DNA of 46,894 nucleotides from NCBI GenBank assembly GCA_964347915.1, contig CAYGAM010000003.1, positions 1-46,894 of the forward strand, written 5' to 3'. A program made the position numbers and the translations under genes. The DNA comes from an uncultured Nitrosopumilaceae archaeon. Its GTDB lineage: Archaea; Thermoproteota; Nitrososphaeria; Nitrososphaerales; Nitrosopumilaceae. Position 1 is the stretch's first letter; each line of letters begins with the position of its first letter. The notes beneath the pieces are model-generated. The model saw only the letters and a program-made list of their open reading frames with translations. It searched no databases and had not been told where the DNA came from. Below are positions 20,019-39,630 of the stretch, one piece after another.

Positions 20019-20555
20019 ATGACAGTGCTGCGCGGCCACTCTTCGCTGCTGATTGCGGACTATATCCTGTACGAGCACGGTTGCAGATTCTCTCCATTTC
20101 AACTCATCAAGCTGGTGTTCATATCGCATGGCAGGACATTGGCCGTGCTTGACAAGCCGCTCATACGAGACCGCATAGAGGCTTGGAAGTATGGGCCGGT
20201 AATACCATTATTGCATCACCAGCTCAAGATATGGGGCGAGGCTCGTATTCTGGAACTAAACTATTGCGGCACAGTACCAAACAAGGGCATGGATATTGAT
20301 GCCAATCGCAAGGCATTTTTTGAGAGTACGATACCAAAGCAGGAGCGTGCCATAATAGATGCGGCAGTAAGGGACTATGAAGACTGGTCGCTTGCCGACC
20401 TGCAGAAGCTGTGTCATGAGGCGGGATCGCCATGGGACAAGCATTATGACGGAAAGTTTGGAACAGAGATTCCAGACTATGCCATACGCGAATACTACAG
20501 AAATGAGATGATTGTGTGCAACTCCAAGGTAACAACTCGGTTTCTGGAAGTTTAG
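20019..20555 (+). CDS. Panacea-domain (DUF4065, SocA/GepA-like) protein
   Basis: 178 aa. The block FQLIKLVFISHGRTLAVLDKPLIRDRIEAWKYGPVIPLLHHQLKIWG matches the ..KLLY...G..L...G.PLF...FEAWKYGPV.P..Y pattern of DUF4065. Confidence 0.7.
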   Translation: MTVLRGHSSLLIADYILYEHGCRFSPFQLIKLVFISHGRTLAVLDKPLIRDRIEAWKYGPVIPLLHHQLKIWGEARILELNYCGTVPNKGMDIDANRKAFFESTIPKQERAIIDAAVRDYEDWSLADLQKLCHEAGSPWDKHYDGKFGTEIPDYAIREYYRNEMIVCNSKVTTRFLEV

Positions 20556-20699
20556 ACATGAGTGTTGCTACCTCAGAAGTGCCCCCTGGGCAGATTCGTG
20601 CCTGAAATCTGGAACAGCATCCAGAGCCCGAGATGTTACACTCCAAAAACTAAGACGCCAGACAGCATTAGTGACGAATTTGCCGTAAAAAGCGAGTAG

Positions 20700-22535
20700 T
20701 TATTCGTACAACTTGCGGAAGTTGTCCAAAGACCAAACACGCGTTGCTACGTCACACAATTGCTTTTCGCGATCTTCTACTGTCTTAGCAGTCCATTCAT
20801 CATAATTACTCACAATTTCATTGTTAAGTTTGAGGTCAGAAGCGGCAAGGCAGTATATGTCAGAATTTTTTGTCTGATCGCCATACTTCTTGTGGGCAAA
20901 GTCAGAATTTTTCATTTTTTTACTCCATTTTGGTGTTACCAATGTAAGATTGCCCAATCTGTGCGTAAATGGTTCAAAAGTTGGCTTAGCGTACTGCTCC
21001 ATGCGATCTTTGCAAAAAACATCCACATTCCAATCCGCACTAGGATTTTTTGGTAAAATATGCTCTATCTCAAAGTCGTCATAGTCCAGAGGAGCATCGC
21101 CAGAGCGCCAATACTCTTCGATTGATGTCAGTATGTATTTTGCAACAGCGTCTGATTCCTTTAGATTCGTCATTTCATCTCTGAAAAGCTTTACAAATCG
21201 ATCAGACTCACAAAGCGGCTCATGCTTTAATGCGCCCCTGTCTTCAAGAATTAATTTGATAATTTCATTAAGCGGCATGTCATTATTTATCGCCGTAGTC
21301 ACGCTACGCGAAATTTTTTTAATTGTATCTGTCGAACCATCACAAATAGTCCGATGCCGAAAGAAAAACGTCAGCAAGCATTTAGTTAATTTTTTAAAGT
21401 TGTCTGACTCAAATCCCCATTTTCTATGTGCAGCAATTACGGGGGCTCTAATATAATTTGCATTAAGCTGAGCGATTCCGTCAAAGAGTAACTTAGTATC
21501 CTTGTCATATGCTTTGTCGTGCAGTCCCTGATCCGGGTTTGTCAAGTATAGCACACATTTTTTATCCTGATCCAACTCGCTAAGATATCTATCAATAAGA
21601 TCTGCGCTGCTGTATTTTTTTGTGACGATTTCATACAGGTTGTTTAGGTTCAGTTTCATAATTTTAGTGGAATTGATGCGAATGGCGGCAGCAGGATGCC
21701 GTGACAGCAACGAATCATAAAGAAACGAATCAGAATTATCAAATTTTTTAATAATATTGTCCCAGCGTATCTTAAAATTTCGATCTTTGGCATTTTCTGC
21801 CAGATGAGTTTTGATCATGCTCGCCTGAGTTAATTTCATGCCTGTGGCATTTAATGCGTCAAATATCATATAGGCATAATCAGGATTATGAACAGAGACA
21901 AAGGCAAACACGTTCTTATCAAACATGCTATCCAATAATCTCCACAGATTTCTGATTCCGGCATCAGAATTGTCTTCAAAGTTTATGTTTTCATCAACAC
22001 AAAGCTCAGCAATCTGTTTGCAAAATGCATCATAGTTTTTCAGCAGGCGCTCTTGGGATTTCGGCATCTTTTGGCCATTAATTATAATTTTTTTTATATC
22101 TCTCGTATTTTTAATATCTTTTGTATCAGCTTGAAGCTTTTCAAAACAGATGTTATCAATACCGCCGAACGTGACTTGGCGTGGCTGCGTATCTGGAATG
22201 TGCTTGTTAATGTGGTTTAGTAGCATATTCTTGACCGTAGAATTTTTTGCAAGCTTATTCACATAATCGCGAACAGCGCACAACAAAAGCGTCAGTGTAA
22301 CAAGATGTTGCTGTCCATCAATTACATCATAATATCTTTCGCCATTGCTATTTTGGGCTACTGCCACTATGGTACCCAGCAAATTAACATCATCAGCGCT
22401 TATCACATCATTCCAGAGCCGTTCTGCATTCTCTCTTTCCCACGAATATTCTTGTTGATATTCTGGTATGACGTATCTTGTTCCTCTAAAGATGTCATCC
22501 AACTTTCTTTCAGATATATGATAATTGTCCACCAT
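20700..22535 (-). CDS. DUF262-DUF1524 nuclease (GmrSD / SspE-like, type IV restriction-type)
   Basis: 611 aa. The N-terminal YVIPEYQQEYSWE and DVIDGQQHLVTLTLLL are variants of the DUF262 IP.YQR.Y.W and DGQQR motifs. The C-terminal FEIEHILPKNPSADW...HRLGNLTLVTPKWSKKMKNSDFAHK matches the DUF1524 His-Me finger pattern. Confidence 0.8.
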   Translation of the reverse strand: MVDNYHISERKLDDIFRGTRYVIPEYQQEYSWERENAERLWNDVISADDVNLLGTIVAVAQNSNGERYYDVIDGQQHLVTLTLLLCAVRDYVNKLAKNSTVKNMLLNHINKHIPDTQPRQVTFGGIDNICFEKLQADTKDIKNTRDIKKIIINGQKMPKSQERLLKNYDAFCKQIAELCVDENINFEDNSDAGIRNLWRLLDSMFDKNVFAFVSVHNPDYAYMIFDALNATGMKLTQASMIKTHLAENAKDRNFKIRWDNIIKKFDNSDSFLYDSLLSRHPAAAIRINSTKIMKLNLNNLYEIVTKKYSSADLIDRYLSELDQDKKCVLYLTNPDQGLHDKAYDKDTKLLFDGIAQLNANYIRAPVIAAHRKWGFESDNFKKLTKCLLTFFFRHRTICDGSTDTIKKISRSVTTAINNDMPLNEIIKLILEDRGALKHEPLCESDRFVKLFRDEMTNLKESDAVAKYILTSIEEYWRSGDAPLDYDDFEIEHILPKNPSADWNVDVFCKDRMEQYAKPTFEPFTHRLGNLTLVTPKWSKKMKNSDFAHKKYGDQTKNSDIYCLAASDLKLNNEIVSNYDEWTAKTVEDREKQLCDVATRVWSLDNFRKLYE

Positions 22536-23377
22536 TGCTAGTGTTTAGTACCAGATCCTTAAAAATTTTGGTTTGCGGTGTAACTGTTAAGTTTGCGGCA
22601 GATCGCAATATCTGTTAAGCGCCGGCATGTGAAGCATTCTGTTTTGTGACCTCCCAATCCATGATGCGCCGCATAAAATGGGGGCGAAACTGCATTCAAA
22701 ATACGGCTACAGAATTGTCCTTCTTTATGCAGCGCGCAGTTTTTTCCTGCGAACGCATTGAGCTTGCATCGAATAGTTTCATCTGATTGGTGTTCGCATC
22801 TCCCGCTCAGATGATGTGTTCAGGGCGTTTCGCATCCTCGTGCAGAAAATTCCTGGCTCGATCCTGATTCTTTCCGGCATCATCTACCGGCGCTCATCAG
22901 AGAGGAAAATCTGCCACAAACATGGCAGTTCCCTGCGCAGCATTCAACCAAAGAGAATCTCTCATTTTCGGATAATGGCAAAAACAATCCCATTAACCAA
23001 CTGCTTGAGATCGTCATCTGCTTTTTGGAGTGCCATTTGAGCTTTTGGTGCTGCGCGCCGAAGGCAGTTGTTCCACGCACTCCAAAAACTTCTCTTTCCC
23101 CGCGCAAAATACATGTGCTGAAAGTTATGATTTTGACGCAGTACGACGCGAACATTAGTTGCAAGAGACGCCATGACGATTGCAGCATTGCTGCCGGCGT
23201 TTCGTATCCTTCTGCGGTGCTTGCATCAACATTCGATCCAAAAAGTACGCATTCGGGAGCGGTATTGTCATGGCAAACACCGCACCAAATGTTGCGCAAT
23301 AGACCCAACCCAACGTTTTTAAATTTAGCAATTTGTGTCAGAAATAGAGGACATGTTCAAGCAAGATTCAGTTCCAG

Positions 23378-25246
23378 TTGCGCCAATGCAAACAGGAGTG
23401 GTATTGTCATGAAATGGAAGTTCCCGCCCACGGGGGGGGGGCCGAGTACGGATTCAACGATTCCTCGCAAGAGCACTTTCGTTCAAGTCCATTAGAGCAC
23501 ACAATACGCGAAACAATACAAAATTCGCTAGATGCAGTCTTTAACAAAAACAAGCCGGTAAAAGTAAAGATGCAGTTACAAAAAATAAAATCGGCAGATA
23601 TAAACGCAAATGAGCTAAAGCTGCATATCGAACAAACCATACAGAGAGAAAAGGGACAGCAGGAAGCCACCAAATTTTATAGAAATTCAATGAAGATAAT
23701 CAAGCAGAAGAATATTTCGGTTCTCTCCATAATTGATTCCAATACTAGCGGATTGGAAGGCAATAACTGGAATGCTCTTGTGCGCAGCGAAGGAACGCCA
23801 AACAAAGGAAATATGAGCGCGGCAGGCGGGAGTTTTGGCATAGGAAAGAACGCGCCATATTCAATATCTCGGCTACGATTGGTGTGTTATGCAACGCGTT
23901 ATCCAGGAAAACCCGGTAGAATATCGCGGTTCATGGCAAGATGCAAGCTTTCCTCTCATCCGGATCCATCAAAGCCTACCCAAATGCTACAGAACATAGG
24001 ATTTGGGTGTAGAGAATTTACCAGGAATGAGCCCATTCCATTTGAGGGAAGAAGCATCCCTAATGACATTTTCAAGCTAAAAGAACGCGGCACCGGCGTT
24101 TTCATCATGGCGCCAGACATTTATGATAAAAAGTGGGTAAAGAGGGCAAAGATGTATGTCGCGTGTCACTTTTTTGCGGCCATTCATGACAAGAAGCTTG
24201 AAGTTTACATTGAGACGGCAAAGATCGACAATCAGACGATAGATGACATATTCAGGGAGGGCAAAGCAAAAGAACGATCGCGCCACTATTACGATGCAAT
24301 AAGCGCTCCCCAAAAATACAAAAAAATAGAAAGCGAGATTGGAAACTTTGAGGTATTATTATGTGCCGGCGACATCCACGCGCCCAGCCGCGTTGCATAT
24401 GTCAACAGACGCGGCATGCTAATAACAGACGATCCCATATACAAAAGAAACCCGTTTCAGGCAAAATTGCCATGGGCCAAGTATGCAGCAGTTGTTAGAG
24501 CGGACAACGATGATACAGATACCCGCATCAGGGAAATGGAGCCTCCAGATCACAGCAGCATTCAGCACGATCGAATTCGCAATTACACAGAACATAAAAA
24601 AATGAAAGAGGAATTGTTGTATGTCCAGACCGAAATAAAGGACTTTATCGAATCCAATTGTGGAGGGAAAAACAGCGCAGACTATATCCTTGTTGACGCC
24701 CTAGCAAGCATACTGCACATTCCAGGCTCAGCCATATCTGGAGACGACGGCGACGAACTTGGCGATCCCGAGCATCGGATTGTAAAAGCTGCAAAGTCCA
24801 GAGGCAAAGGAAAAAATCATGGTGGCAACGGACCAGGAAAGAAAGGCGGATCGGGGCAGGGCGGCGGTAATGGGCGCAGCAAAGATGAAGCAAGCGACGG
24901 TGGCGAATATGGCGGACAAGATCACGATTTGTTTGATAAAGAACGAATCATACGCAGCAATGACAGGCTAAAAATCGCTTTTACACCAAAAGACAATAAA
25001 AAGAGCATCAAGTTTGCCATAAAGCCTGCCGGCGAAGAAAAAAAGAATGAAGATGTCATCGAAATTTCCAAATGCAAGAGCATAGCGCCGCCCAACATAA
25101 AAATCGACATAGAGAACAATGTGATAACAGTAAATCCAAAAAATTCCGAGCGCATAATACTTGAAGTGCCAGCTAGCGGACATCAGTATACCGGTTACGA
25201 AATAGTGGAAATAGCTGCGGCGCCAGAAGGGAATAGAGAGTCATGA
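23378..25246 (+). CDS. GHKL (Bergerat-fold, HSP90/MORC-like) ATPase with an uncharacterised C-terminal half
   Basis: 622 aa (610 if the start is the ATG at 23414). N-box is IRETIQNSLDA (ExxxNxxDA). IIDSNTSGLEG is a G1-like motif, and GGSFGIGKNAPYS is the G2 box (GxFGxG). A Gly/Lys-rich linker (KSRGKGKNHGGNGPGKKGGSGQGGGNGRSK) precedes a beta-rich C-terminal domain. Confidence 0.6.
   Translation: MRQCKQEWYCHEMEVPAHGGGAEYGFNDSSQEHFRSSPLEHTIRETIQNSLDAVFNKNKPVKVKMQLQKIKSADINANELKLHIEQTIQREKGQQEATKFYRNSMKIIKQKNISVLSIIDSNTSGLEGNNWNALVRSEGTPNKGNMSAAGGSFGIGKNAPYSISRLRLVCYATRYPGKPGRISRFMARCKLSSHPDPSKPTQMLQNIGFGCREFTRNEPIPFEGRSIPNDIFKLKERGTGVFIMAPDIYDKKWVKRAKMYVACHFFAAIHDKKLEVYIETAKIDNQTIDDIFREGKAKERSRHYYDAISAPQKYKKIESEIGNFEVLLCAGDIHAPSRVAYVNRRGMLITDDPIYKRNPFQAKLPWAKYAAVVRADNDDTDTRIREMEPPDHSSIQHDRIRNYTEHKKMKEELLYVQTEIKDFIESNCGGKNSADYILVDALASILHIPGSAISGDDGDELGDPEHRIVKAAKSRGKGKNHGGNGPGKKGGSGQGGGNGRSKDEASDGGEYGGQDHDLFDKERIIRSNDRLKIAFTPKDNKKSIKFAIKPAGEEKKNEDVIEISKCKSIAPPNIKIDIENNVITVNPKNSERIILEVPASGHQYTGYEIVEIAAAPEGNRES
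23432..23441 (+). repeat. G10 homopolymer inside the 5' end of the GHKL ATPase gene
   Basis: cac ggg ggg ggg gcc encodes HGGGA. It lies downstream of both candidate ATGs, and no in-frame start occurs between it and the N-box. Confidence 0.9.
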
Positions 25247-26079
25247 GTCACATTGCTCATTTGCTGCCGCATCCGGTCATTAAGCCAGATGGCAACGACT
25301 ACAAGGAAGAATGTACGTTTGAAATAAAAATGAACAGCGTTGAAAGAATCGACAATAAAATACGAATAAGTCTATCTCTTAATCTCAAAAGTAACACCGT
25401 AAGCAATCTTATAAAAAATGGCGATGCCGAATTTTGCTTGATCTCAAAATGCACAGAAACAAACAAACGAGATATTTATCAAACTGATGAAAGCGAAATA
25501 CGCTGGGAACTGCCAGCATCAGACTATGCAAGAGATCTTACGATTGCGCCGTATGTAGCCACTACAAAAAGAATCATGATGACGCATTCCGATGAGCACG
25601 ATGAGGAATTCGGTCTGCTGCTTCCAGAAGGCGTCAATTTGCCGGCAGGAGCCATACTTGCAGTAGGCAACTATTGCAAGATACTGCTATATAAAATACC
25701 GAAACTGCAGGCCGCAATCAAGTTAACCAAGAACAATCCAATAGATGACGGAATATATTACATTGATACTGATGGAGATTATATAGAAATTCAGGTGAAT
25801 GAAAAAACCTACGAAATGGTAGAGACAATAATCAACCATAATCACTCGGATGTTCTTTATCCTTCCATTTATGCTGCCGCTGTCGAAAGAGCCATACGCG
25901 ATATGAAAGAAAATGAAGGCAAAAAATGGACAGAAGCGCTTCGAAAATCATTAGAAAATAAAGGCATAGATCCAGACGAGCCTGATTTTGCAGATCATGC
26001 AAACAAGTATGCGCAGGAATTGCTTGAAGGTCCGATGAAGCGTCTTGGAGTCATTTTGAGGACTGAGCAAGATGAGTGA
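25243..26079 (+). CDS. Hypothetical protein, no recognisable domain
   Basis: 278 aa. Its start overlaps the upstream stop (ATGA at 25243-25246), and its stop overlaps the next start (ATGAGTGA at 26072-26079). Composition is protein-like, but I recognise no motif. Confidence 0.6.
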   Translation: MSHIAHLLPHPVIKPDGNDYKEECTFEIKMNSVERIDNKIRISLSLNLKSNTVSNLIKNGDAEFCLISKCTETNKRDIYQTDESEIRWELPASDYARDLTIAPYVATTKRIMMTHSDEHDEEFGLLLPEGVNLPAGAILAVGNYCKILLYKIPKLQAAIKLTKNNPIDDGIYYIDTDGDYIEIQVNEKTYEMVETIINHNHSDVLYPSIYAAAVERAIRDMKENEGKKWTEALRKSLENKGIDPDEPDFADHANKYAQELLEGPMKRLGVILRTEQDE

Positions 26080-27688
26080 ACAGCTTTACAGATTTACGCG
26101 AAACGCGTTTGATAATTTATATAAAAAAGTTGGCGACAATTTGAAGTATTATAACGATCCCGACACCAAATTTGACGAAGTCATTAAAAAAATCCTTAAA
26201 GAACCAGGCGAATACAGAGTTCCAGTCAAAGGCGTACGCATAACAGGAAGCATAGACATGATGGTCAAAGATGAAAAATCCCGCCAAATGGCAGATGCAG
26301 GAGCCATTGATTTTTACAATGCTTTTGAGGGCATGACGCCAGCTCTTGCATCCGATGCGAGGCTGCTTGCATACCTGAATCACTTTTACTTGCACAAGTA
26401 CGGTCACCAGCGATGGGAAGCTGAAAAAAACCGCGACGCAGAATGGTTTCAGCGGCACTGGTTTAGCAGTGGTAACAGACAGATTTACGAGCAGAATGTA
26501 GCAGGCAGAACATGGTGGCTGGCGCACATTGCCATCACATCAGCAAAACAGTCTGGAGGTGCATTTGACGCAAAGGATGCGCTTGGAAAATTTGCGGCTG
26601 ATCCTGAATATTATCACAGAACCATGCAGTATACAGTACTTCGAAACCCTCTTCTGAGAGCAGAATGTGTCAGGGCCATTCTTAACGAGGCTAATGGCGT
26701 AAACCGCGACGGATACAGGGAAATCCTGATGGATCTTAACCGAGAAGCTGGCGCCAGGCTGTTAGACGTACTTGACCGCAGCGTCATGCGGGATCTTGTA
26801 ATGCAATCTGCAACAAGGGTAATGAGTACTCCAGACTATGTAAAAAACAGGAAAGATGTGATGGGTAAAAAAAAGCTTAAAGTTTTGAGCCTGGGAGCAG
26901 GAGCACAGTCCACAGTTCTAGCTCTTATGGCAGACATCGGATGGGAAGGGCTTGAGAGGCCCGACATTGCCATATTTGCGGACACGCAATGGGAGCCGCC
27001 AAATGTGTATAAGCATCTTGAGTGGCTTGAAAAACAACTCTCGTACAAAGTAGTCAGAATATCTGCCGGAAACATACGCGAAAACATACTAAACGGCGTA
27101 AACTCTACAGGACAAAAATTCATGGAAGCTCCAGTATTCATGATAAATAATGACGGCACCCAATCGGTAGCTGCCAGACAGTGCACCGCGCATTACAAGA
27201 TAAATCCCATAACGCAGGAACTGCGAAAAATACTCCAAATACCTGCAGGCAGGACGGCTCCAAAAGATGTTGAGGTTGAGATGTGGATGGGCATCAGTAC
27301 GGATGAAGCCGCAAGAATGAAGCCCAACAGGACCAACTGGATAATCAACCGCTATCCGCTAATTGAAATGGACATGAGCAGGGCGGACATATACGCATGG
27401 TTTTACAAGCGGCATCCGGACAGGCATCTTCCGCGCAGCGCATGCGTTGGCTGTCCGTATCACGACGACATGGAGTGGAAATGGATAAAGGAAAACGAGC
27501 CAGAATCATTCAATGACGCTGCATATGTAGACTGGGCGTTGCGCAACATTCCAAAAGCCAAAGGAACAATGAAGGGGACGGGATTCCTGCACCATTCGCG
27601 CAAGCCGCTGAGTGATGTAGATTTGGATGATGCAAAAAACTATGATGATTTTATGGCAAACGAATGCGAGGGATTGTGCGGTGTATGA
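26072..27688 (+). CDS. Fusion of an uncharacterised N-terminal domain (about 270 aa) with a PAPS-reductase-family (DndC/SspD/IbrA-like PP-loop) domain
   Basis: 538 aa. The PP-loop-like block KVLSLGAGAQSTVLALM begins near residue 278. Downstream are ARQCTAHYKINPI, CVGCPYH (CxxC) and the C-terminal CEGLCGV, consistent with Cys-rich PAPS-reductase relatives. Confidence 0.7.
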   Translation: MSEQLYRFTRNAFDNLYKKVGDNLKYYNDPDTKFDEVIKKILKEPGEYRVPVKGVRITGSIDMMVKDEKSRQMADAGAIDFYNAFEGMTPALASDARLLAYLNHFYLHKYGHQRWEAEKNRDAEWFQRHWFSSGNRQIYEQNVAGRTWWLAHIAITSAKQSGGAFDAKDALGKFAADPEYYHRTMQYTVLRNPLLRAECVRAILNEANGVNRDGYREILMDLNREAGARLLDVLDRSVMRDLVMQSATRVMSTPDYVKNRKDVMGKKKLKVLSLGAGAQSTVLALMADIGWEGLERPDIAIFADTQWEPPNVYKHLEWLEKQLSYKVVRISAGNIRENILNGVNSTGQKFMEAPVFMINNDGTQSVAARQCTAHYKINPITQELRKILQIPAGRTAPKDVEVEMWMGISTDEAARMKPNRTNWIINRYPLIEMDMSRADIYAWFYKRHPDRHLPRSACVGCPYHDDMEWKWIKENEPESFNDAAYVDWALRNIPKAKGTMKGTGFLHHSRKPLSDVDLDDAKNYDDFMANECEGLCGV

Positions 27689-27728
27689 CATATCAAGCCT
27701 GATATCAAGGCAAGTACTCTGCGATTTC

Positions 27729-28010
27729 ATGTTTTGTAATCAAATCCGAAGATCCCCTGGCCTGTACAGCTTTTGGCTGCGCGGCAGATGTTTGTACGTC
27801 GGAATGAGCGACGATCTCCAGCGCCGCATACTTCAACATACGCACAATGAGACAAATCCCGAACTGGCAAAATATTTTGATGTGTATAAAAACGAAATAA
27901 AGATCTCATTGGCTTATCTCAGCTGCACAAAGGCCGAGCTGTTGAACAGAGAAAGATATGCCATTGATCAGTTGCGGCCAATTGCAAATAGGACGAGGCC
28001 GTGCACATGA
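27729..28010 (+). CDS. Stand-alone GIY-YIG nuclease domain protein
   Basis: GLYSFWL (GIY), CLYVGMSDDLQRRILQH (YIG plus the conserved R) and NRERYAIDQLRPIANR (catalytic E, N). The track ORF starts at 27627, but that would overlap the upstream gene by 62 nt. The ATG at 27729 leaves a normal 10-aa lead-in. Confidence 0.75.
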   Translation: MFCNQIRRSPGLYSFWLRGRCLYVGMSDDLQRRILQHTHNETNPELAKYFDVYKNEIKISLAYLSCTKAELLNRERYAIDQLRPIANRTRPCT

Positions 28011-29248
28011 CAAGCACATATCCTGCATTAAAGGCCAAGTTTGGTACGACTGAGTATTATCTCGCAGCTGTGCCTATAGGCGAGATAATCGGAAAAGTAA
28101 AGTTTCCGGTAGAAATGCCCGACTGGGAAAGTCAATCAGTAGAAGAGAGATACCAGAGAAATCTTGATGAGCGGCGCATCAAAAAAGAGATCGCCCCATA
28201 TTTTGCAGAGGATGATAAAAGATTTTCCGGATCACTGGTGCTGGCAATAATGAACGGCGAAAAGACAAAGTTTGAAGAGCTGACAAAGGTGTTTAAAGAG
28301 AAGGATCTTCCAGCTTTGTATCAAGAAAATATAGAGAATATGGGATTTTTGATCTTTTCCGGAAAAGAAATATTCGTGCCGCTTGACGGACAGCATCGCG
28401 TAAAGGCCTTCAATGTAGCAATAGAAGGACTCAAAGAAAATCAAATTAGCATAAATCCAAATCCGGATCTGGCAAAAGATATCATATCAGTAATATTCGT
28501 GTTCTTTGATGGGGACAAGGCGCGTTATATTTTCAATAAAATAAACAAGTATGCAAAACCCACCAAAAAAGCAGACAAGCTCATAACAGACGATGATGAT
28601 GCAGTAGCAGTAATTACCAGGCGATTAATCAGAGACAGCATCATTCCGGAACGGCTTGTAAACATAAAAACCAACACCCTTAGCAAAAAAGCAATCGAAT
28701 TTACAACACTGGCAACTTTCAATGATGCAAACTATGCATTACTGTCAGGATCAAAAATTCCCATAACAAGCAACCCACAGAAAATGGAGGCTAAAGAGAT
28801 AGACAGCCGCTTCAATGAACTTTGTGATGAATGGAGGATGCTTTTATCAGGCATTAATGAATGGAAGCAGGCAATAGAGATGCCAACAGCAAGAGGAGAT
28901 AGGGCAAGAATTGACATACGTGCCAACTCTCTGCTTGGAAGGCCGATAGGGCAGCTGTCTCTTGTAAAAGGATACTCGTTTGCATGCCAAAGAGATCGTA
29001 ATGCTGACCGCCAATCATTAGTTAGAAAAATGAATAGAATTGAATGGAATGCCAAGAATGAAATGTGGCGCGGCGTTTTGATACAGCAAAATGGGCGCAT
29101 AATGCACGGCAAAAGCTCGTCAAATAATGCGGCAAAATTCATAGCCCATCTGCTTGGAGCAAAACTAACGCAAGAGGAAGTTGAGGATTTATTGACATTC
29201 ATACACGGTACGGCAAGAGGGCATACATTGCCCAGGCCAGTATCATGA
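28001..29248 (+). CDS. DGQHR-domain (DndB-like, ParB-fold) protein
   Basis: Contains the literal VPLDGQHRVKAF motif and the upstream YQRNLDERRIKKEIAPY block typical of DndB/DGQHR proteins. The likely start is the ATG at 28007, which overlaps the GIY-YIG stop (ATGA at 28007-28010). Confidence 0.75.
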   Translation: MHMTSTYPALKAKFGTTEYYLAAVPIGEIIGKVKFPVEMPDWESQSVEERYQRNLDERRIKKEIAPYFAEDDKRFSGSLVLAIMNGEKTKFEELTKVFKEKDLPALYQENIENMGFLIFSGKEIFVPLDGQHRVKAFNVAIEGLKENQISINPNPDLAKDIISVIFVFFDGDKARYIFNKINKYAKPTKKADKLITDDDDAVAVITRRLIRDSIIPERLVNIKTNTLSKKAIEFTTLATFNDANYALLSGSKIPITSNPQKMEAKEIDSRFNELCDEWRMLLSGINEWKQAIEMPTARGDRARIDIRANSLLGRPIGQLSLVKGYSFACQRDRNADRQSLVRKMNRIEWNAKNEMWRGVLIQQNGRIMHGKSSSNNAAKFIAHLLGAKLTQEEVEDLLTFIHGTARGHTLPRPVS

Positions 29249-34628: not shown

Positions 34629-35675
34629 TCAGCCCAGGATCATGCGCAGAACGGCTTCGGTCTTTCCCAGGACGCGGTAGCACATTCTGCCGACGCGCTC
34701 GGGGCTGCCGTCTCCGGCATAGTGAGCAATGTACCGGTGCGTGTACTGATCTGCATTGTACCCGTACAGCCTTCCCAGAACGCAGGCAGAGAGCTGGGCA
34801 ATTGCCTCCTGTTCCGGATCCTGCCCAGGCTTGAGCTTTTCAATGCGATCGTGAGCCTTGTGGGAGAGTTCGTGAAAGAATGTTGTCGGATCGTCGGTGC
34901 AAAGCCGGATCTCATTATCCTCGCTGCTGAATGATCCGTACTCGCCGCAGGATGTTCCGTCGTATCTGACTTTTACGCCCCACTTTTTTGCCACATCAGC
35001 AAGCGGCGGGAGGGACTTGGGCTCGTTCTTGACGGTTTTGAGAGTTTTGCCTTCGGTGTCCTCATACCGGAATACCGGTATGCACCGAAATCCCGTCAGA
35101 ATTGTTCTTGTTTCGGGTTCGGGTTTTTCCAGTTCGGTTTCTTCCGGAACATTCTTGGATTCGTCCTCTTTTGATTTGTCGGACTTTGCAGATTCCGGAT
35201 CCTGAGACTCGTCTCTGCCGGATTTGTCCTTGCCGGATTTCATCCTGCCTGAATCTTGGGATTTGTTTTTGCCGGGCTTGGAGTTTTTTGAATCGTCTGC
35301 TGCAGGCTTGCCTTTGGTTTTTTCAGGCTCAGGTTCTTTTTGGCTGCTATTTTCCGGACAGTCTTCAGCGTCTTCCTTTCTTATTACGGCCAGGCACGGA
35401 CCCAGAATGTAGATTGCACGCGCGCCCTTTTTGACATGGCGTCCTACTGACTGCCACTGCCTAAAGCCCCTTGCATCGGTCGTATTGGAGAACATCATCA
35501 GTATTTTATTGCCCATGCTCCACAAGTCGCTCGGCTTGCCTTCTGATTCAAGGTATGCCTTTGCCACGGCTGCCGGCAGCTTTTCATGGGAGAATATTTC
35601 AGCGACTTCTCGGAGTTGTTCTATTGCTTTTTTTGTACTCTTCATGCCTCCACCCATGAAATGACATGGCTGCAT
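34629..35675 (-). CDS. ArdC-like protein: N-terminal ssDNA-binding (DUF1738-like) domain, long low-complexity insert, C-terminal HExxH metallopeptidase-like domain
   Basis: DLWSMGNKILMMFSNTTDARGFRQWQSVGRHVKKGARAIYIL resembles the ArdC N-domain. FFHELSHKAH is an HExxH motif. Roughly residues 100-225 are K/D/E/S/P-rich. The likely start is the ATG at 35645 (MKSTKKAIEQL). Confidence 0.6.
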   Translation of the reverse strand: MQPCHFMGGGMKSTKKAIEQLREVAEIFSHEKLPAAVAKAYLESEGKPSDLWSMGNKILMMFSNTTDARGFRQWQSVGRHVKKGARAIYILGPCLAVIRKEDAEDCPENSSQKEPEPEKTKGKPAADDSKNSKPGKNKSQDSGRMKSGKDKSGRDESQDPESAKSDKSKEDESKNVPEETELEKPEPETRTILTGFRCIPVFRYEDTEGKTLKTVKNEPKSLPPLADVAKKWGVKVRYDGTSCGEYGSFSSEDNEIRLCTDDPTTFFHELSHKAHDRIEKLKPGQDPEQEAIAQLSACVLGRLYGYNADQYTHRYIAHYAGDGSPERVGRMCYRVLGKTEAVLRMILG

Positions 35676-35770: not shown

Positions 35771-36025
35771 CTATATATTACTTTCCTGCGACTGTTCTGT
35801 AACAAATTCTGGTGACGCTGAAGACGCTTGCGCAGATGAGATTTTGTAAGCAATTCTGGTCATGGAATTTGACGCCTGCGGAGCAGGTCCATAATGAAAC
35901 AGGTCTTGGAAAAACCCAGCATTAGATGGCATCAGTTGATGCGGGATTCTGTCACCCAAATTTGTTATAGAACCATAAAAGTAAATTTTGATTTCGGCGG
36001 GCGGAATTATTTCAGCCTTGCACAT
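35771..36025 (-). CDS. Hypothetical small protein
   Basis: 84 aa. Its ATG lies 1 nt after the stop of the upstream ORF (36027), suggesting coupling. No motif recognised. Confidence 0.35.
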   Translation of the reverse strand: MCKAEIIPPAEIKIYFYGSITNLGDRIPHQLMPSNAGFFQDLFHYGPAPQASNSMTRIAYKISSAQASSASPEFVTEQSQESNI

Positions 36026-36026
36026 T

Positions 36027-36674
36027 TCAGTCGCTTGTGCGGCCGTTCATTATTTTGAATTTCAGCTTGGCCAGACGCCCCTTCAGCGAGGGTGTTTTTG
36101 ATTCATCGCACTCCGAGTAGTTTATTGCCATAGCCTGATCGTCAATCCGGATATCCGTTTCCTTTTTCTCTTTGATAATTCGCTGGACGCAGTCGGTGCT
36201 GGATAAAATTCGCTTTTTGAGATTGAGCGGCTCCTCTTGCAGGTGGGCAAGATTGTCGGCTTCGGCAGCAGAAGCGGGGACGGCGGGGGCGACAATAGCT
36301 AAGTTGCGTTCCAGCTCTGACATATCGAGCTCAATGCTGGGCTGGCGGCTGACGCTGGTGGATTTGGGGGCGGCTCGGCGGCGGCTGACGCTGGTGGATT
36401 TGGGGGCGGCTCGGCGTTCCAGTCCTTCAATGATTTTACGCTGGATTGTCAAAGCCTCTCTCATATATTCGGGATTGACCTCATCTTCGATTAATCGGTG
36501 GATTCGTTTTATGCATTCCTCGTATTGTCGCCTGAGTTCCGAAATCGGCTGGGGATTTTCGGCCGTCTCTTCAATGTCTAAAACGTCGCCCAATGACCCA
36601 AATGTGATCTTCCTTACACCCTCACGGGTTTCGATTACGTATGAGGGGAGATCGCCTTCGGTGCTTATTGTCAT
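36027..36674 (-). CDS. Hypothetical protein with an internal 12-aa tandem duplication
   Basis: 215 aa. RRAAPKSTSVSR occurs twice in tandem, encoded by the perfect 36-bp duplication at 36344-36415. Confidence 0.5.
   Translation of the reverse strand: MTISTEGDLPSYVIETREGVRKITFGSLGDVLDIEETAENPQPISELRRQYEECIKRIHRLIEDEVNPEYMREALTIQRKIIEGLERRAAPKSTSVSRRRAAPKSTSVSRQPSIELDMSELERNLAIVAPAVPASAAEADNLAHLQEEPLNLKKRILSSTDCVQRIIKEKKETDIRIDDQAMAINYSECDESKTPSLKGRLAKLKFKIMNGRTSD
36344..36415. repeat. Perfect 2 x 36-bp tandem duplication
   Basis: ggcggctgacgctggtggatttgggggcggctcggc at 36344-36379 and again at 36380-36415. Confidence 0.9.
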
Positions 36675-36697
36675 ACTTTGTATTGCGGTAATTCAAT

Positions 36698-37840
36698 TTA
36701 TAAATTGAGCCCTTTCGGACGTATTGTTCCCCTAATGATTACGATTTTGCCGTCCCAGCCGAGCCCCCGCAAATATTTTATCGCCTCTTCAGGGGTGCCT
36801 CGCGGCTTGATGTAGATAACTTCGATTTCGGCTCCGTGATCTGCCGGCAGTCGCACCTCAAGCTCTATGAGGTGATCGATTACGCCGTATTTTGTGCTTT
36901 CAAGCACCCGGTCATCTCCCACCATCACCATGGACAATGGAGTATATTCTAATGGAATGCCTTTTTTGTTGATATCTTTGAATTGCGCCACGATATGGTA
37001 ATTTCTAAAATCCAGGGCGGATATGCGGGATGCGGAGCAGTAGATCATACCTTTTTCTGGGTTTGGAAAAAATTCTGGATTTGGCCGCAGACCATTATTC
37101 ATAAAATCCCCAAACATGTCATCATTCATTGCCCGATAAGCCATGCCCGATTTTTCATATGTCAGTTTTAATATTCGATTATATTCGTCAAGCAACGCCA
37201 TTGCTTCAGGCTCAATGCGGCGGGCGTATCCCATTATTTCCCGCATAAGTTTGAGCTTGGCTCTCTTGCTTAATTTTTTCTTGGTGGCGATTCCATTCTT
37301 TGTTTTAAATAATTCATACTTTGCGAATTCAGGCGCTTCCAGCAGAGAATTTCTAACGCGCTCAAATGCCTTCATGAATCCTTTATAGATGGGATACTTT
37401 TTACTGCCGAGTATTTGATTATGTAATATTGTTGTGTAATATCGCGGATCGTTAAACCAATAATCGCTGGCATATTTATTAATCACCGCTCTTTTTTTCG
37501 GTCGCTCTGGATTGAAATCAAATGTGTTGAGATCAACAACTGTTGGCCTTTTTCTGCCTTTGCGACTCTTGCCACCACCCTCGTCTGGATTGTTTTCTGC
37601 CCGGCGCTGAACAGCCCGCCGACCCGCCTCGCTGGAGTCTTCGTCGGGGCGAATTGGATAGCGTTGTTTCTTTTCTGTGGTGCGCCAATAATTGCTACCC
37701 CTGTTTGGCTTGTCTTTGAGGCTAGGCTGGAAGCATTTGACGGCGAGTATTTTGAGCCGAAGCGCGATCATATCAAGCTTTATTTTCAGCATTTTAATTG
37801 CTTCGCGAAGTTTCCCGATGTCATCAGAATCATAAGTCAT
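36698..37840 (-). CDS. Hypothetical protein (mobile-element-associated context)
   Basis: 380 aa. A coiled-coil-like N-terminus and a basic low-complexity stretch (RKGRKRP) precede a globular C-terminal two-thirds. No motif I can name. Confidence 0.55.
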   Translation of the reverse strand: MTYDSDDIGKLREAIKMLKIKLDMIALRLKILAVKCFQPSLKDKPNRGSNYWRTTEKKQRYPIRPDEDSSEAGRRAVQRRAENNPDEGGGKSRKGRKRPTVVDLNTFDFNPERPKKRAVINKYASDYWFNDPRYYTTILHNQILGSKKYPIYKGFMKAFERVRNSLLEAPEFAKYELFKTKNGIATKKKLSKRAKLKLMREIMGYARRIEPEAMALLDEYNRILKLTYEKSGMAYRAMNDDMFGDFMNNGLRPNPEFFPNPEKGMIYCSASRISALDFRNYHIVAQFKDINKKGIPLEYTPLSMVMVGDDRVLESTKYGVIDHLIELEVRLPADHGAEIEVIYIKPRGTPEEAIKYLRGLGWDGKIVIIRGTIRPKGLNL

Positions 37841-38021
37841 CCGAACACGCCCCCGAATTGTCGTAAAAATCAGTCGCAGATTTATCGAATCGCGCGGTGG
37901 GCAGTCTTGATTTCATGCACTCATGGGCATTTTTTTTGATTCGTCCATTGCCATTATGTCTTTGCGAATGAATTGCAGTACTGTTTTTGATGCTATCTGC
38001 GAAAGCATTTTCTGGAATCAT
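37830..38021 (-). CDS. Hypothetical small protein, first ORF of the ArdC-like unit
   Basis: 63 aa. It overlaps the next start by 11 nt. A TATA-like CTTATAAAG lies about 25 nt upstream of its ATG. Confidence 0.3.
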   Translation of the reverse strand: MIPENAFADSIKNSTAIHSQRHNGNGRIKKNAHECMKSRLPTARFDKSATDFYDNSGACSDDL

Positions 38022-38042
38022 ATAGTAACTTTCTTGTCGTGC

Positions 38043-38050
38043 TTTATAAG
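38043..38050 (-). promoter_or_regulatory. Candidate TATA box for the 38021-34629 unit
   Basis: The minus strand reads CTTATAAAG, 22-29 nt upstream of the ATG at 38021. Confidence 0.35.
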
Positions 38051-38345
38051 GTTTGTTTGTGATTGTTAGTGCTCCTATGAATCAGGACGCTACTCCTGGG
38101 CGGCGCCAAAACACCATTCAGGAGCGTTATCATTTTTGGACAAGTCATTGGCCTGCAAGGCCGGTATACGCTCAAGCCTGTTTCACAGCAGCCAATGCAT
38201 CAAATGGCAGCAGTTCTGCAACTCATCAGACTGCTGGCAAAAGCGCGCGCCGTAGCCTGCGCTCATGCTGCGCTGACGATTGCGTCAAGTCCTGCTTTGC
38301 TGAACCAGGCATGCTCGGTCCGGGACAAGCGCGCCACCCAACAAT

Positions 38346-38359
38346 AAAAAAACAAAAAA
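38346..38359 (-). terminator. Oligo-T terminator after pstS
   Basis: The minus strand reads TTTTTTGTTTTTTT, starting about 9 nt after the pstS stop (38368). Archaeal RNA polymerase terminates at oligo-T. Confidence 0.5.
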
Positions 38360-38367
38360 GTGCTGGT

Positions 38368-39630
38368 TTATTCTGTCTTGATTATTCCTTGTTGTATGAG
38401 GAACTGCAGTGCTGATATGAGCGTACTGTCGTCTATCTGGCCGTCGCCGTACAGCTTGAAGACGCCTGCCACCCATTCAGGAATTTGCGAATCCGATGCG
38501 GCAGATGCTGCCGGAGCATACTCCCACAGCGCGCTGCCTTCATACTGAACCATTCCAAGCCCCTCTTTTCCCAAGCCAATTACTTCGTCAGGAAGAGGAA
38601 CGAATCCCAGTTCGCTTGCATACTGCTGTCCGTCTGTAAGCATCCAATAGATCATCCATATCAGCGCAAGAGCTTCATTTCGGCTGTCCGCAACATCAGT
38701 GACATCTTCATACACCAAAAGATACGTAAAAGTAGCAATTGGATAAGAGTCTGCTCCTGGCGCATTCAGCAGGTTGACTGCATGCCACGCTTCATTGGGC
38801 TGTGGAAGCGACGCTTTTGCCAGTTCGCCTGCGGCGTTTGCCGTAGTGTCAAGAGACGGATATACAAAGCCCGACTTGTCGCCGTTCTCTACGGCAACAC
38901 TCTTGATATCGTTTTGCACCGCATATGCGATGGATACATATCCTATTGCGCCTTCGGTTGTGAGCAGCGTATTTGCAACGCCTTCATTCCCTGGCGATCC
39001 GCGGCCTGTAGGCCAGCCGACGCTCTTTCCGTTTCCTACGTTTTCATCCCATGATTCGCTTACGGAAGACAGCCATTGCGTGAATACCTTTGTTGTTCCA
39101 GAGCCGTCAGACCTGTAAACTACAGCAATGCTGCTTGACGGCAGATCGACGCCAGGGTTGTCGGCTGCAATTGCCGGATCATTCCATTTTGTGATCTTGC
39201 CTTCAAAGATGTCGGCAATCACCGGTCCTTTCAGGTTCAGTCCGTCGGACACACCGTCCAAGTTGTATACCACGTTTACTGCGCCGATTGTCTCAGGAAT
39301 GTGTAGTGTGCTTGAAACTGCTTCCATTTCAGCTACGGTAAGAGGAGCATCTGTTCCAGCAAAGGATACCGTACCCTCAATGTGCTGCTTTACGCCTCCG
39401 CCGCTTCCAATAGACTGGTAGTTTAGGTTCAAGTCGTCGTTGATGTTGTTGATCTCTACCCGCCAGCGGTCAATCAGCGGAAACGGAAATGATGCACCAG
39501 CACCGTCAATTGTTACCGAGCCTTGCGGCTCTTCCGGCCCCGTCTGAGCCTCTGCATACAGCGGAGGAATTATGGATGTCAGCATTACTGCAATCAGCAT
39601 TATCGTCATTGTTTTCATTAATCGTATCAA
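38368..39630 (-). CDS. pstS: Phosphate ABC transporter substrate-binding protein PstS with an extra C-terminal module
   Basis: Signal peptide MIRLMKTMTIMLIAVMLTSIIPPLYAEA. PstS blocks GAGASFPFPLIDRW, SIGSGGG and YRSDGSGTT. An additional C-terminal tail of about 60 aa ends IPEWVAGVFKLYGDGQIDDSTLISALQFLIQQGIIKTE. Confidence 0.9.
   Translation of the reverse strand: MIRLMKTMTIMLIAVMLTSIIPPLYAEAQTGPEEPQGSVTIDGAGASFPFPLIDRWRVEINNINDDLNLNYQSIGSGGGVKQHIEGTVSFAGTDAPLTVAEMEAVSSTLHIPETIGAVNVVYNLDGVSDGLNLKGPVIADIFEGKITKWNDPAIAADNPGVDLPSSSIAVVYRSDGSGTTKVFTQWLSSVSESWDENVGNGKSVGWPTGRGSPGNEGVANTLLTTEGAIGYVSIAYAVQNDIKSVAVENGDKSGFVYPSLDTTANAAGELAKASLPQPNEAWHAVNLLNAPGADSYPIATFTYLLVYEDVTDVADSRNEALALIWMIYWMLTDGQQYASELGFVPLPDEVIGLGKEGLGMVQYEGSALWEYAPAASAASDSQIPEWVAGVFKLYGDGQIDDSTLISALQFLIQQGIIKTE

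Follow-up and report, generated by a model that had tools for sequence, protein, structure and literature searches.

The locus described here raises the question of whether five overlapping archaeal genes, encoding parts familiar from several DNA-directed systems, make up one DNA modification and restriction system and, if so, whether that system has been described. The operon lies in a 46,894-nucleotide stretch of DNA from an uncultured Nitrosopumilaceae archaeon (contig CAYGAM010000003.1), which was analysed at its full length and is called the window below; the genes are called g1 to g5, and their coordinates are collected in Table 1. Established are the composition of the operon, its translational coupling, the assignment of its proteins to families, its modularity and the conservation of the five-gene order in Nitrosopumilaceae-type archaea. 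Our preferred reading, to which we attach a probability of about 0.45, is that of a self-modification and restriction system, composite and horizontally mobile, that follows the logic of Dnd, Ssp and BREX-4 with other parts and a GHKL core.

Three of the five genes are, judged by profile matches, already catalogued as the PADLOC candidate PDC-M33. Apparently new are the fusion of a PAPS-reductase-like (hereafter PAPS-like) domain to the third of these, a GIY-YIG/DndB gene pair and the wider modular network, no description of which was found in the literature searched. Full-text searches returned no paper on PDC-M33, on DUF6339, on PAPS reductase with GHKL and ParB, or on phosphorothioation with GHKL; searches worded with MORC, HATPase or Hsp90-like gave nothing relevant, and GHKL is not mentioned in the Dnd reappraisal paper.

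Five coupled genes and the families of their products

Five open reading frames (ORFs) on the forward strand were confirmed from the ORF list and by reading the sequence, with overlaps of 4, 8, 8 and 4 nucleotides at the g1/g2, g2/g3, g3/g4 and g4/g5 junctions, respectively. An ATGA at 25243-25246 combines the stop of g1 with the start of g2, ATGAGTGA at 26072-26079 holds the start of g3 and the stop of g2, and a second ATGA at 28007-28010 joins the start of g5 to the stop of g4. A first-pass annotation made from the letters alone had described these three junctions and the same-strand coupling, and both were seen in the sequence, as were all of the motifs it quoted from the translations (IRETIQNSLDA, GSFGIG, SLGAGAQST, CVGCPYH, CEGLCGV, GLYSFW/CLYVGMS/NRERYA and DGQHR). 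A fourth coupling had gone unrecorded: GTG 27681, inside GTGTATGA, is most likely the start of g4 and overlaps the stop of g3 (27686-27688) by 8 nucleotides; the gene calls in three of the loci compared (L081, L089 and L090) have the same g3/g4 arrangement. The start of g5 is ATG 28007, giving 413 amino acids. Scans with Pfam, PADLOC and NCBIfam agreed with the earlier statement that DndA, DndD, DndE, SspA, SspC, a methyltransferase, a tRNA-guanine transglycosylase and the BREX core genes are missing from the operon; SspB is missing too, and DndD, DndE, PbeC, PglZ, BrxC, BrxL and BrxP were found neither there nor among the other window ORFs scanned. An Rfam search of the region gave zero RNA gene matches.

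The putative modification enzyme is the C-terminal half of g3, for which the strongest family match by E-value was phrog_424 "PAPS reductase" (2.1e-44). It also gave a partial match to PADLOC SspD (9.2e-15, 53 bits, profile positions 2-199 of 277), and 10 of 13 members of its clade matched the Pfam PAPS_reduct model (at 0.01 or better, best 2e-6), so that the PAPS-reductase-family PP-loop domain proposed in the first pass was upheld. At the start of the domain, a PP-loop-type motif, S273-L-G275-A-G277-x-Q279-S280, does not vary among the 19 fused and 13 mixed sequences aligned and represents an SxGxGxQS variant of the canonical SGGxDS. Conserved too are FADTxWEP, C371, C458xxC461 and a C-terminal cysteine pair, C532xxxC536 (CEGLCGV), these motifs and cysteines being invariant or nearly so in fused and solo members as well as in those of phages and plasmids. 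The domain would be an Fe-S PP-loop ATP-pyrophosphatase.

The N-terminal half of g3, taken for a novel domain in the first pass, proved to be Pfam DUF6339 (1.8e-21), and it matched PADLOC PDC-M33C at 2.4e-21. An AlphaFold2 (AF2) model of the domain was mainly alpha-helical, with a predicted local distance difference test score (pLDDT) of 93.2 and a predicted template modelling (TM) score of 0.90, and Foldseek found no fold relative for it in the PDB (best E 0.9) or BFVD (best E 1.1). Residues conserved family-wide, in 102 stand-alone members, are R114-W115, R146-x-W148-W149, H104, Y110, H129, N142 and N223, and the conserved surface is rich in Arg, Trp, His and Tyr. The domain was considered as a missing nuclease and rejected, because its conserved residues are Arg, Trp, His, Tyr and Asn and an acidic cluster was not seen; a binding role is thus likelier, and the pattern would fit a pocket for binding better than a metal-dependent nuclease. 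The family is small, with 348 clusters (50% identity) among 1.84 billion representatives, the majority stand-alone proteins of about 250 amino acids and roughly one-tenth fused. The DUF6339 half matched nothing in the plasmid and phage collections.

Taken in order along the forward strand, g1, g2 and the N-terminal half of g3 matched the PDC-M33A, PDC-M33B and PDC-M33C models. In the searchable text and supplementary tables of Payne et al. (bioRxiv 10.1101/2024.01.29.577857), PDC-M33 is phage defence candidate, multi-gene no. 33, of PADLOC and appears as cassette CAS_00129 with a listed count of 98, among 145 candidates proposed through their embedding in BREX, DISARM and type I restriction-modification loci; no function or mechanism for it was found in that material. 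The canonical C protein consists of DUF6339 only (about 250-350 amino acids; model lengths 247-346), as in a PDC-M33 with a 276-amino acid C protein on a Deinococcus plasmid (L091), beside Dcm and Vsr genes. In the window, by contrast, the C protein is the N-terminal 250 amino acids of a 538-amino acid fusion to the PAPS-like domain, and GIY-YIG and DndB-like genes follow. As its DUF6339 does not stand alone, the window is classed as a fused PDC-M33 variant. The first-pass opinion that the cluster fits no described layout is accordingly too strong as regards g1, g2 and the front half of g3.

The product of g1 matched PDC-M33A at 2.8e-76 and is made up of a region with GHKL-like motifs, a linker rich in Gly and, at the C-terminus, a small beta-rich domain. 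In 31 g1 homologues, E34/N38/D41 of the N-box, D109..T112.G114 and G140-S-F-G143-I-G145-K are invariant or nearly invariant and keep the GHKL order, the motif forms being E..N..D, D..TtGL and GGSFGIGK. The motifs fall in register with the HATPase_c_3 family, albeit weakly (hhalign E 1.3e-3, probability 18%), and the top PDB profile matches, also weak, were Topo VI-B and PMS2 at the N-box (E 0.26-2). No family was assigned to g1 by Pfam and NCBIfam scans; across the 31 members Pfam HATPase matches were zero and weak SACS matches five. A PDB search with the single g1 sequence was discarded as low-complexity noise. The GHKL ATPase of the first pass thus stands as regards the motifs, which are invariant and ordered, and is less firm as regards family membership, for which the motifs and weak profile matches speak and Pfam HATPase does not; g1 is likely a GHKL-type ATPase. 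Four Dehalococcoidia orthologues (L006, L008, L009 and L013) carry an extra C-terminal helix-turn-helix of about 60 amino acids, with weak Sigma70_r4/KorA/HTH_23 matches, that is found in none of the archaeal g1 proteins.

The N-terminus of g1 requires separate comment. A start at TTG 23378, where the first-pass region begins, was not borne out: orthologues in the 31-sequence alignment begin M..KWxFPPTGGG[V/A]xxGFND, a peptide that the window encodes out of frame with the rest of g1, beginning at ATG 23409. Gene callers take ATG 23414, giving 610 amino acids. The KWxFPP peptide of the window joins the g1 frame only with a G11 in place of the G10 tract (Table 1). In L081, of 80% nucleotide identity, there is a G11 at 1463-1473 and an intact MKWMFPPTGGGAEY N-terminus; in L082, a second assembly that is 98.5% identical, the tract is G10 as in the window (approximately 2569-2578, minus strand) and the conserved KWxFPP start is lost. 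The tract is the sole run of G or C of at least 9 in the window, and in more distant orthologues the TGGG residues are encoded with no such long run. Two explanations offer themselves: an error in sequencing the homopolymer, or a phase-variable switch acting on the operon's first gene.

The g2 protein matched PDC-M33B at 7.6e-32. Its AF2 model (pLDDT 88.6) has two beta-sandwich domains followed by a C-terminal helical bundle. Homology to Ig/FnIII proteins was considered and rejected, as Foldseek against the PDB gave generic FnIII/Ig-like matches with TM of at most 0.25. Neither a family, in Pfam and NCBIfam scans, nor an enzymatic signature was found, and g2 is probably an adaptor or scaffold.

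The last two genes conform to their first-pass family assignments. The g4 protein scored 26.6 bits against Pfam GIY-YIG (cutoff 22.6), and its catalytic residues G27-x-Y29, Y39-x-G41, R49, E91 and N103 are intact and invariant in 16 homologues, including divergent 170-amino acid forms. The g5 protein, which carries a literal DGQHR, passed the cutoffs of Pfam DndB (PF14072; 5.6e-38, 131.3 bits, cutoff 29.1) and TIGR03187 DGQHR (112.1 bits, cutoff 58.85) and fell far under that of the TIGR03233 DndB equivalog (107.7 bits, cutoff 328). By these scores it is a member of the DndB/DGQHR family and not an orthologue of the Dnd regulator. A GIY-YIG gene lies directly 5' of the DndB-like gene in every locus checked.

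Layouts and relatives in other genomes

Full-length fused DUF6339-PAPS g3 was found in more than 640 proteins and in at least 575 genome stretches, and gene neighbourhoods were analysed for 80 loci with five further look-ups (L-numbers denote loci compared). Four layouts were distinguished. Layout A is the complete order g1-g2-g3-g4-g5 and occurs in at least nine loci (the window, L081, L001, L002, L003, L005, L035, L089 and L090), which have g3 identities of 53-85% and differing genomic contexts, making the association more than chance. The gene order, whose conservation the first pass had put up for checking, thus recurs in at least nine thaumarchaeal loci; wherever a taxon name or neighbouring archaeal marker genes allowed a layout A locus to be assigned, it was archaeal, and one locus, L090, adjoins a restriction-modification system and transposases and is flanked by IS110 and rve genes.

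Layout B comprises 35 loci with g1-g2-g3 and no close g4/g5 homologues. In about 12 of these, from other phyla, a GmrSD gene adjoins the trio, mostly directly 3' of g3. Others have Pbe-like genes for a PbeA-like helicase and a PbeC/DndD-like ATPase (five loci), a superfamily 2 (SF2) helicase with HATPase_c_3 and phospholipase D (PLD) family genes (four), or a divergent 170-amino acid GIY-YIG gene and a DndB-like gene 3' of the trio (three), and in L086 and L087 a HARE-HTH protein gene follows. Both g1 and g2 are present at 34 of the 35 complete-enough loci with a fused g3. Layout C consists of a solo PAPS-like gene with GIY-YIG and DndB-like genes (12 loci). Layout D, in about 24 loci, combines a solo PAPS-like gene of its own clade with an SF2 helicase (ResIII), a HATPase_c_3 protein with a weak MzaB match, and a PLD-family nuclease; examples lie in L046-L080 (e.g. 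L049 9971-14750), and the cassette as a whole matched no named PADLOC system. Because an unrelated second GHKL ATPase sits beside the same enzyme clade in layout D, a real partnership between ATPase and modifier is argued for.

A neighbour-joining tree of the PAPS domain resolved the phage and plasmid solos, the enzymes of layout C, those of layout D and the fused proteins, which are monophyletic and include layout A as a nested group. The clades match the partner sets, so the enzyme co-diversifies with its partners, in the way that a modification enzyme does with cognate restriction partners, and the nesting of layout A indicates that g4-g5 entered an exchangeable 3' slot. The first-pass idea that a DndB-like protein is the modification partner of the PP-loop enzyme was not supported: most layouts with the PAPS-like enzyme have no DndB, and phages and plasmids carry the enzyme by itself.

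Solo homologues were identified on 178 plasmids and in 55-57 phage records, with 35-46% identity in the best-matching records; most carry the label "hypothetical" or are named as a "PAPS reductase" of metabolism. On Ti-type conjugative Agrobacterium plasmids, the solo gene lies directly 3' of ardC in a region that also holds ParB-domain, DUF736 and traG genes (e.g. an Agrobacterium vitis plasmid, L085 4048-5912). Phage homologues include those of Pelagibacter HTVC034P, Geobacillus PK5.1, Thermus P23-77, SSIP-1 (Salisaeta) and Mycobacterium abscessus prophages, and the phage solo genes (L083, L084 and L093-L095) lie in replication or early regions. The PK5.1 gene is between HNH and single-stranded DNA-binding protein (SSB) genes, and a DNA methylase gene is nearby in one M. 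abscessus prophage. The settings beside ArdC and methylases resemble those of orphan methyltransferases, and the solo genes presumably protect their mobile element. An enzyme that stands alone in mobile elements and in cells is accompanied by nuclease or NTPase modules behaves as a modification enzyme would. A distant homologue (26% identity, E 6e-6) is ORF18 of a Nitrosopumilaceae spindle-shaped virus (BK067782.1, 19698-20342), and the host's family may thus have a virus equipped with a counter-modification enzyme.

Two published observations are pertinent to these solo genes. A phage protein in which a PAPS domain is fused to Dam confers escape from host Dnd (bioRxiv 10.1101/2021.05.05.442762), and PAPS reductases are included in Aca-regulated anti-defence operons (PMC13551039). 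The PAPS-Dam protein comes from Vibrio crassostreae phages and may belong to another clade; the closest Vibrio phage match to the C-terminal half of g3 had 27% identity.

To judge from record titles, many of the fused g3 homologues came from Cenarchaeum/Nitrosopumilus, Dehalococcoidia, Caldilineaceae, Latescibacterota and Binatia metagenome-assembled genomes, and L086 is labelled as sponge metagenome. Cenarchaeum, SAR202-type Dehalococcoidia, Caldilineaceae, Latescibacterota and Binatia are typical sponge-symbiont lineages. The apparent enrichment in sponge symbionts may be an effect of which genomes are closest to the query.

The operon in its genomic setting

The operon sits in a low-GC island (38-46% GC at 21-29 kb, compared with approximately 50-55% across most flanking sequence). 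The window also carries nuo, RtcB and pst genes, and its NuoD falls into one cluster, at 90% identity or more, with a protein of a Nitrosopumilus metagenome-assembled genome, which makes the host a Nitrosopumilaceae-type thaumarchaeon. Upstream is a SocA/Panacea-family antitoxin gene (20019-20555; NCBIfam 7.6e-20, below the equivalog cutoff), adjoining which no toxin partner could be recognised in the window. Divergent from the operon is a GmrSD-type gene that matches Pfam GmrSD_N and GmrSD_C and, in PADLOC, HEC-06 (1.5e-65) and Orf5 (8e-55); its match to SspE models is confined to the N-terminal DUF262 region and much poorer (3e-18). With these two neighbours and the drop in GC, the defence-island context raised in the first pass was supported.

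The same operon occupies the same site in L081, between the SocA gene and His-phosphatase/PhoU/pst genes, and at 80% identity is therefore old at this site. The GmrSD gene falls in an indel (window 20518-23307 versus L081 645-1339), where L081 has a 106-amino acid ORF with no family match. Its absence from the syntenic locus marks it as a variable add-on rather than a fixed part of the system; it possibly cooperates with the operon.

A second indel relative to L081, at window 35787-38378 with a GC fraction of about 0.44, is possibly another small island. It holds two minus-strand ORFs, 36027-36674 (215 amino acids) and 36698-37840 (380 amino acids), neither of which matched Pfam or PADLOC. A minus-strand ORF of 348 amino acids at 34629-35675, which gave a sub-threshold match to the ArdC N-terminal domain (E 4.8e-4, 20.8 bits against a cutoff of 22.6), is kept in L081.

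Table 1. Coordinates of the operon genes and associated features in the window
Feature	Position	Strand	Basis
g1, PDC-M33A-type putative ATPase	23409..25246	+	PADLOC, 31-sequence alignment
G10 homopolymer, g1 codons 8-11	23432..23441	+	one base below the G11 of L081
g2, PDC-M33B, 278 amino acids	25243..26079	+	PADLOC, AF2 model
g3 N-terminal domain, DUF6339 = PDC-M33C, amino acids 1-260	26072..26851	+	Pfam, PADLOC, AF2
g3 C-terminal PAPS-reductase-like PP-loop domain, amino acids ~265-538	26864..27688	+	phrog_424, PADLOC SspD
g4, GIY-YIG nuclease family, 109 amino acids from GTG 27681	27681..28010	+	Pfam GIY-YIG
g5, DGQHR-domain/DndB-family, ParB/Srx superfamily, 413 amino acids	28007..29248	+	Pfam DndB, TIGR03187
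GmrSD-type (DUF262+DUF1524) type IV nuclease gene, operon neighbour	20700..22535	-	Pfam, PADLOC

Readings of the operon and their implications

On the preferred reading, the C-terminal half of g3 would mark the host's own DNA, most likely by adenylating a site and inserting sulfur from a housekeeping cysteine desulfurase to give a phosphorothioate (PT) or other thio-modification. DUF6339 would tether g3 to the PDC-M33 core, formed by the GHKL-type ATPase g1 and the beta-sandwich adaptor g2, and this core would perform ATP-driven DNA scanning or site selection, the role of DndD-DndE or SspB-SspC. The g4 protein and g5, a DndB-like NTPase/DNA binder with the ParB/Srx fold, would act as a two-protein analogue of SspE or GmrSD that cuts by DNA modification state. 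The latter proposal follows from their occupying the slot held by GmrSD in other lineages, and it gains support from the shared position after g3 taken together with the treatment of SspE as a DndB equivalent by Rakesh et al. (PMC10853773). The slot 3' of g3 would be exchangeable and taken in other lineages by GmrSD, Pbe-like genes, a helicase with GHKL and PLD proteins, or HARE-HTH.

In the published description of PT systems (PMC12707154), a PAPS reductase is joined by an ATPase from either of two families and by either of two components that recognise DNA. The operon can be compared with these systems and with BREX type 4. Like Ssp, it pairs an enzyme of the PAPS reductase family with an ATPase, SspD being the named PADLOC model that the g3 C-terminal half matches best, and SspE, a 3' sensor of ParB-like DUF262 plus nuclease, is comparable with g5 plus g4 and with the neighbouring GmrSD. 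Unlike Ssp, it has no SspA desulfurase, SspB (DUF4007) or ORC/Cdc6-type SspC; its ATPase is GHKL-like, its sensor and nuclease are two proteins with a GIY-YIG nuclease, and the SspD match is partial. The likeness to Dnd lies in the DndB-family protein g5 and in the PP-loop enzyme, whose three cysteines and cysteine pair agree in number and grouping with the three cluster-binding cysteines and cysteine pair of DndC (PMC10853773), which lends support to the preferred reading. It extends to the variable restriction partner (DndFGH/PbeABCD), with Pbe-like genes beside g1-g2-g3 in the five layout B loci. It differs in having neither DndA nor the pair of DndD/CxC ATP-binding cassette ATPase and DndE, considered the Dnd core by Rakesh et al. 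(PMC10853773), and in the score of g5 below the DndB equivalog cutoff.

The DUF6339-PAPS fusion has a precedent in BrxP of BREX type 4, a PAPS reductase fused to DNA-binding DUF4007, which is likewise an enzyme joined to a putative DNA-recognition domain in a multi-gene system (PMC12839542). The operon departs from BREX type 4 in lacking PglZ, BrxC, BrxL and BrxA, in having DUF6339 and not DUF4007 as fusion partner, and in the cysteine pair of g3, BrxP being described without one. The stand-alone phrog_424 enzymes of phages and Agrobacterium plasmids (35-46% identity) have all motifs and cysteines in common with the C-terminal half of g3, but they are single genes in mobile elements, whereas the g3 domain belongs to a cellular five-gene operon. 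A search through plasmid matches for a bona fide DndC to align yielded only generic "PAPS reductase family" proteins of 22-26% identity.

Several observations weigh against the preferred reading. The GHKL assignment of g1 is statistically weak, the G10 run may have spoilt the N-terminus of g1 in the window, and the operon has no cysteine desulfurase gene. The window g3 scored 17.2-18.7 bits against Pfam PAPS_reduct (PF01507), under the cutoff of 22.5; no NCBIfam model matched g3 at 0.01 or better, and hence no NCBIfam DndC; the PADLOC DndC and BrxP models were unmatched; and PDB sequence searches with g3 alone and with a 19-sequence g3 profile found no solved structure. In about one-third of the g1-g2-g3 loci no nearby nuclease gene was recognised. 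As canonical PDC-M33 occurs without PAPS and PAPS layouts occur without g1, g2 or DUF6339, the GHKL core may be dispensable for modification; each module exists without the others, so that g1, g2 and DUF6339 could form an independent restriction or sensing module. The chemistry, PT or other, is conjectural. The more specific proposal, that g1-g2-g3 constitute a third architecture for thio-modification of the DNA backbone or bases, with a GHKL-type ATPase and the new-fold DUF6339 as DNA-recognition domain replacing DndD/DndE and SspB/SspC and the GIY-YIG and DndB-like proteins forming a split SspE-like reader-nuclease, or else that the PAPS-like clade, with its widespread phage "cysH" genes and plasmid copies, installs a non-phosphorothioate mark, is considered less probable than the preferred reading.

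The independence of the modules is the basis of the best-surviving alternative, which we consider rather unlikely. Two or three independent modules would share one transcript, PDC-M33 acting in modification-independent defence or abortive infection with an unrecognised effector and the PAPS, GIY-YIG and DndB proteins as a minimal restriction-modification-like trio, the g3 fusion serving co-inheritance or co-regulation. This would account for the DUF6339-only C protein of the Deinococcus plasmid, for the predominance of proteins of about 250 amino acids among the 348 DUF6339 clusters, for the solo trio of layout C and for the secondary acquisition of g4/g5 within the fused clade. It sits poorly with the size and monophyly of that clade, in which about 540 amino acids are kept and g1 and g2 are so regularly present, with the overlap at all four junctions, and with the recurrence of a GHKL-PAPS partnership through another GHKL ATPase in the helicase/PLD layout.

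A different substrate for the PAPS-like domain is less probable still. The PAPS reductase superfamily includes CysH/CysD and other non-DNA enzymes, and the domain could act on a nucleotide, cofactor or RNA, in sulfate assimilation, to which the viral "cysH" label points, in tRNA thiolation of the TtuA/Ncs6 type, or as an effector that consumes ATP or signals by adenylylation. The PHROGs category ("moron, auxiliary metabolic gene and host takeover") and the operon's want of a desulfurase, DndD/E or SspB/C partner would suit this, and DNA as the substrate is indirectly inferred. Yet the conserved partners are all DNA-directed (DndB-like, GIY-YIG, GmrSD, SF2 helicase, PLD nuclease and HARE-HTH), solo copies lie beside ArdC, DNA methylase, SSB and replication genes and not beside sulfur-metabolism genes, and an anti-Dnd phenotype is known for a phage PAPS domain (bioRxiv 10.1101/2021.05.05.442762).

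The least probable account denies the island a part in host defence and makes it a cassette of selfish or counter-defence character, with an integrated element carrying either an addiction module or an anti-restriction function. Solo homologues in phages and in the ArdC/ParB-domain region of conjugative plasmids, the low GC, variable neighbours such as the GmrSD indel and the IS110 and rve flank of L090 lean towards it, but in the window the operon is not flanked by genes for an integrase, conjugation or virions, the shared chromosomal site in L081, from the SocA gene to the pst operon, implies long vertical retention, and the PDC-M33 core was identified through its embedding in defence systems (bioRxiv 10.1101/2024.01.29.577857).

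If the preferred reading, that of a composite self-modification and restriction system, is true, PAPS-reductase-based DNA marking would extend beyond the Dnd, Ssp and BREX-4 architectures, and a function would be assigned to the PDC-M33 candidate and to DUF6339, a domain with a confidently predicted fold and no PDB relative. The numerous viral "cysH" genes that virome studies score as sulfur-metabolism auxiliary genes might then be DNA-modification or anti-restriction genes. The gene sizes permit heterologous tests. The hosts include ammonia-oxidising archaea and, apparently, symbionts from sponge metagenomes, in which few defence mechanisms have been tested, and the distant PAPS-like homologue in a Nitrosopumilaceae virus hints at an arms race over the mark.

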